DNA of 32,000 nucleotides from positions 441,301 to 473,300 of the forward strand of contig CAVYCN010000004.1 in assembly GCA_963767005.1 (NCBI GenBank), given 5' to 3'. Within the stretch, counting starts at the first letter, position 1; each line of letters begins with the position of its first letter. A program made the position numbers and the translations under genes. Shown here piece after piece: positions 13,383-17,922 of the stretch. A model generated the notes under the pieces. It saw only the letters and a program-made list of their open reading frames with translations. It did no database searches and was not told the origin of the DNA. This stretch comes from an uncultured Actinomycetes bacterium (GTDB lineage Bacteria; Actinomycetota; Thermoleophilia; UBA2241).

Positions 13383-13817
13383 TCACCGCGCGGCAAGCTC
13401 GTCGAGCCATTCGCGGATACGCATCTCGATGGCGTCGCGGACCTCTCGATAGACCGGCAGGCGCTCATCGGGGTCGCCCTGGACGGCGTCCGGGTCGGGA
13501 AACGGCCAGTGCAGCCTCGTGCCCATACCGGGGAACGTCTTGGGACACTCGCGGTTCGCTCGCTCGCAGACCGTGATCACAAAGCCGAAGTGGACTTTGC
13601 CGAGGAACTCGGAGAGGTCCTTGGCGCGCGCGCCGCTGATGTCGATGCCGCGCTCAGCCATGGCCTCGATGGCAAGGGGGTCGACGGTGGTGGCCTCCAG
13701 GCCGGCACTGAACGCCTCGAAGCGATCCGGCGCCAGCTCACGCAGGAACGCCTCGGCCATCTGACTGCGGCAACTGTTGTGGACGCACATGAACAGCACC
13801 CTGGTCTTGTTGTCCAA
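13383..13817 (-). CDS. arsC: Arsenate reductase, low-molecular-weight-phosphatase (thioredoxin-coupled) type
   Basis: VLFMCVHNSCRSQMAEAFLRELAPDRFEAFSAGLEATTVDPLAIEAMAERGIDISG...VITVCERANRECPKTFPG...HWPFPDPDAVQG. Confidence 0.93.
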   Translation of the reverse strand: MDNKTRVLFMCVHNSCRSQMAEAFLRELAPDRFEAFSAGLEATTVDPLAIEAMAERGIDISGARAKDLSEFLGKVHFGFVITVCERANRECPKTFPGMGTRLHWPFPDPDAVQGDPDERLPVYREVRDAIEMRIREWLDELAAR

Positions 13818-13886
13818 ACCGACTCCTCCTCGGCGAGTTGATATCGCAGGCTACCCGGCCTGTGTCAGGAAACGATGAACTCGCCA

Positions 13887-13930
13887 ATCATAAACACACG
13901 TTGACCATAAATGGAAGTGTATGTGATAAT
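13887..13930 (+). promoter_or_regulatory. Promoter upstream of acr3 (TTGACC 13901-13906, 18-nt spacer, GATAAT 13925-13930) overlapped by a near-perfect inverted repeat, candidate ArsR operator
   Basis: ATCATAAACAC (13887-13897) and GTGTATGTGAT (13917-13927) are inverted repeats matching at 9/11 positions; AT-rich patch in a GC-rich region between divergent arsC and acr3. Confidence 0.6.
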
Positions 13931-13971
13931 CGGGGAGGTCAAACCGCTTGGATCTCAGGAGAAGACACCGC

Positions 13972-15162
13972 ATGGCGACCATGCCTAGGAAGCGCCTCTC
14001 GTTCCTCGATCGCTATCTCACCGCCTGGATCTTCCTGGCGATGGCGCTCGGCGTGTTTTTGGGCTGGACCTTTGCCGGCGTGCCCGCCTTCATCGATCGC
14101 TTCAAAGCGGGCACGACCAACATCCCCATCGCCTTCGGCCTGATCGTGATGATGTATCCGCCGCTTGCCAGGGTGCGCTACGAGGAGCTCGGCGACGTCT
14201 TTCGCGATTACAAGGTCCTCGGTCTCTCGCTCGTGCAGAACTGGGTGATTGGCCCGTTCCTCATGTTCTTCCTGGCGATCATCTTCCTGCACAACTACCC
14301 GCAGTTCATGGTGGGCCTCATCATGATCGGCCTGGCGCGCTGCATCGCCATGGTGATCGTCTGGAACCAGCTCGCCGACGGTGACACCGAGTACGCAGCC
14401 GGGCTGGTGGCTTTCAACGCGGTCTTCCAGGTGCTCTTCTACAGCCTCTTCGCCTGGGTCTTCGTGACCAGGCTGCCGCCGCTGTTCGGCCTGCACGGAG
14501 CCGCAGTCAACGTCTCGATCGGTCAGATCGCGAAGAGCGTCTTCATCTACCTCGGCATCCCGTTCCTGGCCGGCATGCTCACCCGCTACCTCGGGCTCAA
14601 GTACAAGGGCCGCCGCTGGTACGAGGAGACGTTCATACCGCGCATCAGCCCGCTGACACTGATCGCTCTGCTGTTCACGATCGTCGTCATGTTCAGCCTC
14701 AAGGGCCATCTCATCGTCAAGCTGCCGCTCGACGTCGTGCGCATCGCCATCCCGCTGCTCATCTACTTCGTCGTCATGTTCTTCGTGAGCTTCTACCTGG
14801 GCCGCAAGATCGGCGCCGACTACTCGAAGACCGCGACCCTGTCGTTCACGGCGGCCAGCAACAACTTCGAGCTCGCCATCGCCGTGAGCATCGCCGTGTT
14901 CGGGATCGGTTCGGGGGTGGCGTTTGCCGCCGTGATCGGGCCGCTTGTCGAAGTGCCGGTCATGATCGGCCTGGTCAACGTCGCCCTCTGGATGGGGCGC
15001 CGCTACTGGGCCCTGAGCGACGAACCCGTGCCGGCTGCGGTGGTCGCCGGCGTCGAGGAGGTCGCCTGCGACCCACCGAAGGAGCATGATCGCCCTGCCG
15101 TTCAGGCGTCCACAGATCCGCCCGCACAGCCTCGGCCCACAGCCAACCCGGAGGCGAGATGA
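13972..15162 (+). CDS. acr3: Arsenite efflux transporter, ACR3 family
   Basis: [100 protein letters not shown] upstream of ATG 13972. Confidence 0.95.
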
Positions 15163-16837: not shown

Positions 16838-16842
16838 GCGCG

Positions 16843-17118
16843 ATGCCGCAACTGCGCTACATCGACCAAGCCGTCACATTGGAGCTCGACGTAGGACGCT
16901 GCAACGGCTGCGGTCTCTGCCTGGCAGTCTGCCCGCGCGCCGTCTTTGCCCTCGCCGACGGTCGCGCCTCACTGGTGGATCGAGGCGCCTGCATCGAGTG
17001 CGGCGCCTGCGCCCTCAACTGCGTGTCTGGCGCTATCAGCGTCGATTCCGGTGTGGGCTGCGCACAGGCGATAATCCACGGCTGGCTGACGGGCGGCGAG
17101 CCCAGCTGCGACTGCTAA
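16843..17118 (+). CDS. hgcB: HgcB-type dicluster ferredoxin (alternative in-frame GTG start at 16834 overlapping the hgcA stop)
   Basis: MPQLRYIDQAVTLELDVGRCNGCGLCLAVCPRAVFALADGRASLVDRGACIECGACALNCVSGAISVDSGVGCAQAIIHGWLTGGEPSCDC: two [4Fe-4S] motifs including CIECGAC, the extra GVGC cysteine and terminal CDC. Confidence 0.92.
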   Translation: MPQLRYIDQAVTLELDVGRCNGCGLCLAVCPRAVFALADGRASLVDRGACIECGACALNCVSGAISVDSGVGCAQAIIHGWLTGGEPSCDC

Positions 17119-17148
17119 GACGCGTACTACAACGGCGGAGGGGAGAGC

Positions 17149-17922
17149 ATGGGGCCCGAATGGAACCTCTACGAGCGGCTGCTCGCTGAACTACCCAGCG
17201 ACGAGCACGTGCGCGCCTGCCTCGTGGGCAGTGCCTGGACGCTAGTCGAGGCTGTCGGGGTGGGCATGGCGATGTCGTTCCACGACGACACCTGGCTGTC
17301 GTGCACCACGTCGCCAATCGCGGGTCGACCACTTGCCGAAGTGGCCACACAAATGACGAGCTGGAACCTGACCGAGGCCGCGATCGGCCTGGCCGCCCTA
17401 AACGCGCACTACAACTCCAGGGAGCGCGTCGAGCAATGGCTCGGTCGGCGCATCGGCGACAGCGAGGACAGCCCCGTCTTTCGCTCGCTGGAAGACGAGC
17501 TCGCCGGCACGAAGGTGGGCGTGATCGGTCACTTCCCCGGTCTCGAGCGACTGGCCGCCCGTTGCACGCTCACGGTCTTCGAGCGGCGGCCACGACCCGG
17601 TGACCTGCCCGACTACGCCGAGGACTACCTGCTGCCCTCCATGGACTGGGTCCTGATCAGCGGCACGGCGCTCACCAACAAGACCCTGCCGCACCTCCTC
17701 GACATCACGCACAAGGCCCGCGTCGTGCTGGTCGGTCCGAGCGTGCCGCTCACGCCGCTGTGGTTCGAGCTCGGTGTCCACATGCTGGCCGGCAGCGTGG
17801 TGATCGACCGGGAGCGGCTGTGGCCCGTCGTGCAGGAGGGCTCCTGCTTCGAGGTGTTCAGGAACGGGGCCGCAAGGATTCAGGTCACCGTGGACGATCT
17901 GCCGGGCGGTCGGAGGGCGTAG
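17149..17922 (+). CDS. DUF4213/DUF364-type putative heavy-metal-chelation protein
   Basis: VRACLVGSAWTLVEA.GVGMAMSFHDDT..., GRPLAEVATQMTSWNLTEAAIGLAALNAHYN, KVGVIGHFPGLERLAARCTLTVFERRPRPGDLPDYAEDYLLPSMDWVLISGTALTNKTLPHLLDITHKARVVLVGPSVPLTPLWFELGVHMLAGSVV. Confidence 0.8.
   Translation: MGPEWNLYERLLAELPSDEHVRACLVGSAWTLVEAVGVGMAMSFHDDTWLSCTTSPIAGRPLAEVATQMTSWNLTEAAIGLAALNAHYNSRERVEQWLGRRIGDSEDSPVFRSLEDELAGTKVGVIGHFPGLERLAARCTLTVFERRPRPGDLPDYAEDYLLPSMDWVLISGTALTNKTLPHLLDITHKARVVLVGPSVPLTPLWFELGVHMLAGSVVIDRERLWPVVQEGSCFEVFRNGAARIQVTVDDLPGGRRA

Follow-up and report, generated by a model that had tools for sequence, protein, structure and literature searches.

Gene content and control region of the locus

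The stretch of DNA analyzed here (32,000 nucleotides of contig CAVYCN010000004.1, hereafter the window) belongs to an uncultured soil actinobacterium of the class Thermoleophilia and has a G+C content of ~70%. Its central feature is a block of seven intact genes at 12635-17922, two on the minus strand and five on the plus strand, in which the mercury-methylation genes hgcA and hgcB adjoin genes of arsenic resistance (acr3, arsR, and arsC). Gene identities were judged against curated models, i.e., NF and TIGR profiles with bit-score cut-offs, and against Pfam. The window proteins are present exactly in public assemblies; among named relatives, the closest are metagenome-assembled genomes labelled "Thermoleophilia bacterium", many of which come from one large long-read soil survey. 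For comparison, 80 species-representative loci encoding HgcA relatives were scanned with seven window proteins (the GTDB hits numbered at least 595), and seven further relatives (L083-L089) were examined through precomputed domain calls; L005 and L084 are one lineage. Lineages with an HgcA at least 60% identical to that of the window are referred to as the clade, and the outside-clade set consists of 73 loci with an HgcA 41-56% identical to it. The features of the locus are as follows.

12635-13360, minus: metallophosphoesterase, 241 aa, 22 nt downstream of arsC (Pfam Metallophos_2 and Metallophos)
13383-13817, minus: arsC, LMWPc-type (thioredoxin-coupled) arsenate reductase, 144 aa, TTG start (LMWPc, 3e-20)
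13818-13971, no strand: divergent intergenic control region, 154 bp, AT-richer than coding sequence
13901-13930, plus: predicted sigma-70-like promoter of the acr3 operon (TTGACC, 18 nt, TG-GATAAT; 10/12 consensus positions, extended -10)
13972-15162, plus: acr3, arsenite efflux permease, 396 aa (TIGR00832, 450.9 bits vs cut-off 282.8)
15159-15545, plus: arsR, ArsR/SmtB repressor, 128 aa (HTH_5, PF01022, 1.3e-14; NF033788, 78.7 vs cut-off 55)
15566-16837, plus: hgcA, corrinoid protein, 423 aa (NF040863, 409.3 bits vs cut-off 275, model positions 1-323 of 325; PF03599, 2e-15)
16843-17118, plus: hgcB, 2x[4Fe-4S] ferredoxin, 91 aa (NF040864, 113.7 bits vs cut-off 99)
17149-17922, plus: DUF4213+DUF364 protein, 257 aa (PF04016, 1e-36; PF13938, 5e-15; PDB 3l5o, 2e-40)
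18182-18257, minus: transfer RNA (tRNA) gene, tRNA-Glu(UUC), 260 nt to the right of the block (ARAGORN; Rfam, 63 bits)

The window HgcA is identical (100%) to the public gene call P0001. It has a corrinoid domain and a membrane domain, and the cap-helix motif NVWCAAGK (residues 173-180, encoded at 16082-16105) includes the cobalt-ligating cysteine. HgcB, whose gene adjoins hgcA on the same strand, has two CX2CX2CX3C motifs at residues 20-30 and 50-60 plus Cys73, and its C-terminus is Ser-Cys89-Asp-Cys91 rather than the usual Cys-Cys. Of 79 complete HgcB sequences that were fetched, a Cys-Cys terminus was seen in 36 and a Cys-X-Cys terminus in 9; "PSCDC" occurs in the HgcB of several phyla, and an internal SCDC was seen in further loci (e.g., L010 and L056). 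Judged by their profile scores and motifs, the two window proteins look like standard mercury-methylation proteins, and methylation activity is predicted.

Acr3 carries the motifs RCIAM, with a conserved cysteine, and PLVEVP, with a conserved glutamate; we take these two residues, known from Corynebacterium Acr3, to belong to the translocation pathway and to be functionally important. The Cys41-Val-Cys43 of ArsR (encoded at 15279-15287) aligns with the alpha-3 "LCVGDL" of SmtB. This CVC is invariant among the clade orthologues, and in other phyla, each ArsR that was found next to hgcA has a Cys-X-Cys in the same position. With 53.7 bits against NF007528, the model of the E. coli-type ArsR subfamily, ArsR does not reach the cut-off of 97, and we therefore class it as an ArsR/SmtB family member with a predicted ArsR-type site, and not as an orthologue of R773 ArsR; the third cysteine, corresponding to Cys37 of R773 ArsR, is missing from it.

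Both genes of the divergent arm are on the minus strand, as reported in a preliminary description of this DNA; the metallophosphoesterase gene lies outside the interval which that description covered. ArsC has a CX5R loop, CVHNSCR, at residues 11-17 (Cys11, Cys16, and Arg17) and a downstream pair, Cys84/Cys91. It falls under the cut-off of the pI258-type equivalog (TIGR02691, 114.7 bits vs 174.3), and GAGGAGGAG lies 5' of its TTG start. The metallophosphoesterase contains a Cys76-Gly-Cys78 motif, which sits in an insertion relative to the nearest solved structure, PDB 3rqz. All copies that are linked to ars genes and hgcAB have the sequence GDCGC(V/A)YKT without exception (L003, L004, L005/L084, L007, L083, L085, L086, and L087). 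In a Coriobacteriia locus (L023), a GECGC variant was found in a metallophosphoesterase encoded directly upstream of arsR-hgcAB on the same strand, and the unlinked metallophosphoesterases that lie 4 kb from hgcA in L030 and L057 are without the GDCGC motif.

A 2025 paper (PMC12124457) deals with metallophosphoesterases encoded in ars operons that have ~40% identity to Car1. In its account of Car1 (Shen et al., 2024), the arsenate-reducing metallophosphoesterase of Rufibacter tibetensis, two cysteines are essential, Cys74 and Cys76. Car1 and the window protein are both metallophosphoesterases of ars operons with cysteines two residues apart (Cys74/Cys76 vs Cys76/Cys78), a likeness that goes by the description published in PMC12124457 and, for the window protein, by the predicted gene product. 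As the Cys-Gly-Cys motif matches this description, the metallophosphoesterase gene is probably an ars gene, and its product is a candidate Car1-type arsenate reductase.

Distances between successive plus-strand genes range from -4 to +30 nt, and each gene has a Shine-Dalgarno sequence ahead of it. In acr3, AGGAGA lies 8-10 nt 5' of ATG 13972 (an alternative start of the open reading frame (ORF) is TTG 13948), and the 4 nt shared with arsR, ATGA at 15159-15162, bear out the overlap described earlier. A second 4-nt overlap (ATGA) had been described between arsR and hgcA, but it holds only with an hgcA start at ATG 15542. With the start of the public gene calls, GTG 15566, which has AAAGGAG ahead of it, the spacer is 20 nt, and the same spacing of the arsR and hgcA gene calls was seen again in L083, L084, and L086. 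Similarly, hgcB can start within the hgcA stop codon (GTG 16834, 4-nt overlap), as had been stated, but a start at ATG 16843, 5 nt after the stop, is more likely because GGAAGG, a Shine-Dalgarno sequence, lies ahead of it and because the gene calls and relatives begin with MPQLRY or a close variant. The gap between hgcB and the DUF364 gene is 30 nt, with GGAGGGGAG, a strong Shine-Dalgarno sequence, 5' of the DUF364 start. The tight packing described earlier for acr3, arsR, hgcA, hgcB, and the DUF364 gene is thus upheld by the predicted junctions under either alternative start of hgcA and hgcB, with two of the starts probably lying a few codons later.

A consensus scan of 12400-18500 (6.1 kb) gave one promoter-like site, as against a mean of 0.5 in shuffled sequences, and this site is ~40 nt 5' of acr3. 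The motif TTGACCAT(A/C)AA, followed by GTnnATG and a -10-like hexamer, precedes acr3 in all nine syntenic lineages (the window and the eight described below) and splits into two sequence subtypes that match the presence or absence of arsC. Seven other matches to the core TTGACC(A/G)TNAA were found in 1.16 Mb of fetched DNA, none of them related to acr3. The conserved -35/-10 spacer, which has the form TTGACCATAAA...GTGTATG in the window, is a candidate ArsR operator. A seed search of the control region yielded a single 11-nt imperfect inverted repeat (13832-13842 / 13875-13885), which we rejected as a shared operator: it is confined to the arsC-containing subtype, and the differences in L004 are not compensatory. 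No terminator-like sites were found on the plus strand in 12400-18500, and the regions after hgcB and after the DUF364 gene fold no better than shuffled sequences (z = +0.18 and -0.08). No 3' end of the operon is thus marked by a plus-strand terminator or an unusually stable hairpin. Rfam at gathering thresholds over the 32 kb matched only tRNA-Glu, with no cobalamin, S-adenosylmethionine (SAM), or other riboswitch, and control of the locus by a riboswitch or another RNA was rejected on this basis. The plus-strand genes therefore have the usual marks of an operon, i.e., one promoter-like site, no internal terminator found, short or overlapping junctions, and a kept gene order, the last of these only from acr3 to hgcB.

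Conservation of the block among relatives

The preliminary description had proposed a search for retained ars synteny around close HgcA homologues, and such synteny was found in eight lineages besides the window, all in the Thermoleophilia clade, with an HgcA 71-82% identical to that of the window. Seven of these (L003, L004, L005=L084, L007, L083, L086, and L087) have the metallophosphoesterase gene on the minus strand and acr3-arsR-hgcA-hgcB on the plus strand. In the eighth, L085, the interval from acr3 to hgcA has no called arsR but holds an ORF of 58 aa and a thioredoxin (Thioredoxin_3) gene, which gives the order acr3-thioredoxin-hgcAB. As roughly estimated, <1% of genomes should have a gene of one or two copies within 8 kb of a given locus, and the linkage of acr3 with hgcAB is judged to exceed chance because the same gene order occurs in eight other lineages. 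The clade also includes a locus in which acr3 is divergent from hgcAB (L008) and four loci in which hgcA has no ars neighbour (L006, L089, L088, and L009). In L088, the hgcA gene (L088:6001-7053) encodes a 77% identical HgcA of 350 aa that has no Cys-Cys tail; no hgcB was called downstream, there are no ars genes, and the next gene, which is convergent, encodes a SpoIIE-domain protein, so that this hgcA may be degenerate or solo.

The genes around the core vary, and the varying accessories noted in the relatives are all ars-related: arsD-arsA in L084, arsP in L085 and L087, and Thioredoxin_3/thioredoxin between arsR and hgcA in L087. By their distribution, arsC, which is present in four of the nine syntenic lineages (the window, L004, L083, and L086), and the DUF364 gene are variable accessories outside the conserved core. 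The metallophosphoesterase gene, which the preliminary description had treated as a bystander, is instead the most constant divergent partner of the block, and in L084 it forms one string with arsD-arsA. Radical-SAM and class-I SAM-methyltransferase genes, which could be arsM-/arsS-like, lie just beyond hgcB in two relatives (L086:7799-10118, minus strand, and L087:7941-9296), and L087 also has a second ArsR-family gene. Among the loci examined, a DUF364 gene adjoins hgcAB in the window lineage and L004 only, as a lineage-specific last cistron and a recent addition to the operon; this distribution rules it out as a conserved partner of HgcAB. A SAM derivative is the substrate of the one DUF364 enzyme characterised so far, and SAM is the methyl donor for HgcAB (PMC11588087). 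The presence of a DUF364 cistron beside the SAM-dependent HgcAB is by this analogy mildly suggestive, though it is limited to two lineages.

The boundaries of the block were determined by comparison with L004, to which the block DNA is 88.6% identical over 12605-17953. Translated similarity reaches back to ~12164, and homology ends at ~17957. No similarity to L004 was found outside the block, and even when translations were compared, the flanks of the remaining relatives proved equally unrelated. Because the block is conserved while its flanks are unrelated, we regard it as a discrete module that has been moved or rearranged. A tRNA gene abuts the block in three loci, differing in identity and side (tRNA-Glu in the window, tRNA-Asn at L004:4748-4823, and tRNA-Phe at L009:1228-1303), and in this respect the block looks like an island. 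The hallmarks of a mobile-element origin were not found: no integrase or transposase was detected in the window, and an IS110 transposase occurs only in L084, 5 kb from hgcB. Just left of the conserved block, an ORF at 11777-12121 (plus strand) matches only the DUF294_C domain; DUF294 proteins usually have N-terminal domains, which this ORF lacks, and we presume that it is a gene remnant at the block boundary.

One contig, L002, is 99.97% identical to window positions 14281-26837. The similarity is lost inside acr3 (at window position 14281), and the left 5.6 kb of the contig (L002:1-5615) has a lower G+C content, 57-64%, and gave no Pfam matches in the four ORFs scanned. Either the long-read assembly is chimeric here, or the contig represents a strain in which acr3 is truncated and its promoter missing.

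In the outside-clade set, an ArsR is encoded directly upstream of hgcA in L016, L023, L040, L056, and L062 and divergently in L063, and acr3 or arsC was found nearby in L033, L056, L063, and L065. Two further regions of the window are unrelated neighbours of the block. A trio of genes at 24284-27576 (plus strand), encoding ornithine carbamoyltransferase, carbamate kinase, and a PAD_porph protein, looks like an arginine-/agmatine-deiminase pathway, and a 993-aa PAS/GAF sensor with an N-terminal HATPase_c_2 domain is encoded at 7391-10372 (minus strand).

Proposed regulation and alternative explanations

Based on these results, we consider it probable that the locus is an ars locus in which hgcAB have been recruited as distal cistrons, so that ArsR would repress the acr3 promoter, As(III) would release it, and hgcAB would be made together with the pump. 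Co-transcription, operator binding, and the arsenite response are here inferred from the gene content, the spacing, the conserved promoter-like site, the gene order, and the sensor motif. In the proposed sequence of events, an ArsR dimer would bind the conserved sequence overlapping the -35/-10 spacer and repress transcription. As(III), either entering directly or produced when ArsC or the metallophosphoesterase reduces As(V), would bind Cys41 and Cys43 in helix alpha-3 and release the repressor; the leftward unit (arsC and the gene of the Cys-Gly-Cys metallophosphoesterase) should supply the arsenate reduction. A single transcript would then give the Acr3 pump, more ArsR, HgcA, HgcB, and, in the window lineage, the DUF364 protein, and the mercury-methylating capacity of the clade would rise with exposure to arsenite rather than mercury. 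The proposed arsenite-regulated operon is supported by a precedent, because ArsR2 of Pseudodesulfovibrio mercurii ND132 controls hgcAB and is arsenic-responsive (Gionfriddo et al., 2022-23).

Several observations weigh against this proposal. First, the ars coupling of hgcA is dispensable in the clade, as four clade loci have hgcA without an ars neighbour. Second, if L002 is a real strain variant, its arsR-hgcAB exist without the acr3 promoter. Third, there is no clear palindromic operator common to all nine syntenic loci, which fall into two sequence subtypes. Fourth, a promoter inside acr3 or arsR that is unlike the sigma-70 consensus is conceivable; actinobacterial promoters often depart from this consensus. 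Finally, the hgcAB transcript level in ND132 is reportedly not predictive of the methylation rate.

Some of these observations would also suit a co-location in which hgcAB, with or without the DUF364 gene, ride on a transferable metal(loid) island and answer a non-arsenic signal through an unrecognised promoter of their own in or just after arsR. The block lies in unrelated genomic contexts across lineages and adjoins tRNA genes in three loci, the HgcAB phylogeny is discordant with species trees (PMC7438021), and both the four clade relatives without ars genes and the L002 variant without the acr3 promoter point in the same direction. However, the spacer between arsR and hgcA is at most 20 nt and contains only a Shine-Dalgarno sequence, the scan gave no promoter-like site in or near arsR, and the window is free of recognizable integrase or transposase genes. 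Furthermore, the acr3-arsR-hgcA order and the 20-nt spacing are kept in lineages with an HgcA 73-82% identical to that of the window, while flanks and accessories change. We regard co-location alone as unlikely.

The second alternative concerns the substrate of HgcA and requires a description of its N-terminal tail. Residues 21-66 (15626-15763) contain four Cys-Cys pairs, arranged as SCCG-like repeats in Pro/Ala-rich linkers, and the tail probably captures a thiophilic substrate. The number of pairs ranges from 0 to 6 among clade members. It is 3-5 in the ars-linked members (4 in most, 3 in L085, and 5 in L008) and 0-1 in the unlinked L006, L088, and L089, but L009 breaks this trend, with three pairs and no ars genes. 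Relatives in the Desulfuromonadales have up to five CCPP repeats in the HgcA tail. In six HgcA genes of Desulfobacterota, an in-frame TGA occurs at the second position of the last Cys-Cys pair (C-U-GPKP or C-U-PPPS), as follows.

L030:8061, L037:8070, L039:8079, L048:3659, L052:8064, L067:4432: in-frame TGA in hgcA, with a hairpin within the next 60 nt

These six codons fit the published observation of selenocysteine in many HgcA proteins. Selenocysteine was ruled out for the window HgcA, which is the all-cysteine form; the in-frame TGA was seen only in the relatives from Desulfobacterota. Nor is the Cys-Cys tail a new feature, since an N-terminal Cys-Sec / Cys-Cys extension of HgcA has been described (Haft and Gwadz, 2022, bioRxiv 10.1101/2022.07.06.499078), of which the window HgcA has the all-cysteine form. 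In the text of that preprint that we consulted, "packing" with extra cysteines is mentioned, and we found no discussion of the variation in repeat number (four in the window and 0-6 in the clade).

If HgcAB acted on arsenic or another thiophilic metalloid, as the preliminary description had suggested for HgcA and arsenic, the Cys-Cys tail would capture As(III), methylation would be corrinoid- and SAM-dependent and independent of ArsM, and hgcAB would be true ars structural genes, with mercury methylation as a side reaction. An arsenic-related native function was explicitly raised by Gionfriddo et al. The stable position of hgcAB within ars operons in at least nine lineages, the lack of arsM in the window, the aptness of vicinal cysteines as As(III) ligands, and the loose trend in pair number would all suit such a role. 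In addition, an hgcAB deletion strain is said to be more sensitive to As(V). Against this, HgcA and HgcB score over their full length as equivalogs of the mercury-methylation proteins and keep every signature residue, and mono- and dimethylarsenicals were not detected in cultures of ND132, the one tested organism. Moreover, Cys-Cys tails occur without ars genes in L009 and are common in Desulfobacterota loci without ars genes, and L086 and L087 have separate SAM-methyltransferase genes nearby, possibly arsM. The suggestion of an arsenic substrate thus gained no support from the proteins or from ND132, and we consider it quite improbable.

Also quite improbable is a general soft-metal or methyl-cycle response of the operon, in which the regulator would sense, for example, Hg(II), Sb(III), methylarsenite, or S-adenosylhomocysteine (SAH): ArsR/SmtB specificity is not reliably readable from sequence, the window ArsR scores under the E. 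coli-type cut-off and is missing the third R773 cysteine, and ND132 ArsR2 also responded to SAH-related treatments, but the regulator is encoded in an operon with acr3 beside two arsenate-reductase candidates, its CVC is invariant in the clade, and Cys32 and Cys34 alone suffice for the arsenite response of R773 ArsR, with Cys37 not required.

Relation to known systems and significance

The mercury-arsenic link itself is not new and has been in the literature since 2020. McDaniel et al. (2020; PMC7438021, Fig. 6) showed hgcAB flanked by acr3, arsC, arsR, and arsM in diverse genomes and first reported hgcA-carrying Thermoleophilia, and the association was restated in 2022-23, including by Zhang et al. 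(2023; PMC10349881). In these studies, as here, hgcAB occur with acr3, arsC, arsR, or arsM. The published neighbourhoods are qualitative, whereas the present analysis adds a fixed order, a conserved promoter, the CVC site, and the Cys-Gly-Cys metallophosphoesterase. The complete ars module coupled to hgcAB that was highlighted in the preliminary description is indeed present, but it had been anticipated by McDaniel et al. (2020). Likewise, the interpretation offered there agrees with the compact same-strand unit, the single conserved promoter-like site, and the canonical Cys-X-Cys, but it repeats a hypothesis already in print.

In ND132, control of hgcAB by ArsR and their induction by arsenic were demonstrated in 2022-23 (Gionfriddo et al.), and the arsR2-hgcA-hgcB locus of this organism (Goni-Urriza, 2020; Gionfriddo et al., 2022-23) resembles that of the window in having an ArsR/SmtB regulator immediately upstream of hgcAB on the same strand. 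The ND132-type Cys-X-Cys aligns with the window CVC, as compared through the Desulfovibrio caledoniensis orthologue (L052), but the window ArsR is only 34% identical to this Desulfovibrio-type regulator, which has a second Cys-X-Cys not present in the window protein. Four cysteines (CxC + CxC) make up the site of ND132 ArsR2, as against the alpha-3 CVC alone in the window ArsR. The ND132 locus is without other ars genes, whereas the window arsR is the second gene of an acr3-led operon with divergent arsenate-reductase genes. ND132, in which arsR2 is co-transcribed with hgcAB and responds to arsenic, is a Desulfovibrio-type host, whereas the window comes from an actinobacterium.

The locus shares with canonical ars operons (E. 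coli R773 arsRDABC and actinobacterial arsR/acr3/arsC) an ArsR with an alpha-3 Cys-X-Cys, Acr3, and a thioredoxin-type ArsC. Canonical ars operons are autoregulated from a promoter overlapped by the operator; the window operator is only a candidate. The window differs from them in that arsR follows acr3 instead of standing first, the third R773 cysteine is missing, and hgcA, hgcB, and the DUF364 gene are appended. The present analysis contributes the finding that, within a single actinobacterial clade, the operon has a fixed architecture and a conserved promoter, its regulator has the canonical sensor site of two cysteines, and a Cys-Gly-Cys metallophosphoesterase gene belongs to the core.

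The control and purpose of hgcAB are open questions in mercury biogeochemistry, and the arsenic link has so far come mainly from one Desulfovibrio-type organism, which has an atypical regulator and hgcAB without ars neighbours. The locus described here, together with its eight relatives, presents the link in its simplest form, with an arsenite-sensor motif, a pump, and hgcAB behind one conserved promoter. The system is small enough to be rebuilt in a heterologous host, and it does not change existing knowledge in kind. The clade is widespread in soil and wetland, and, if arsenite induction is true, the methylmercury potential of anoxic soils that contain arsenic could be increased by organisms seldom counted as methylators.

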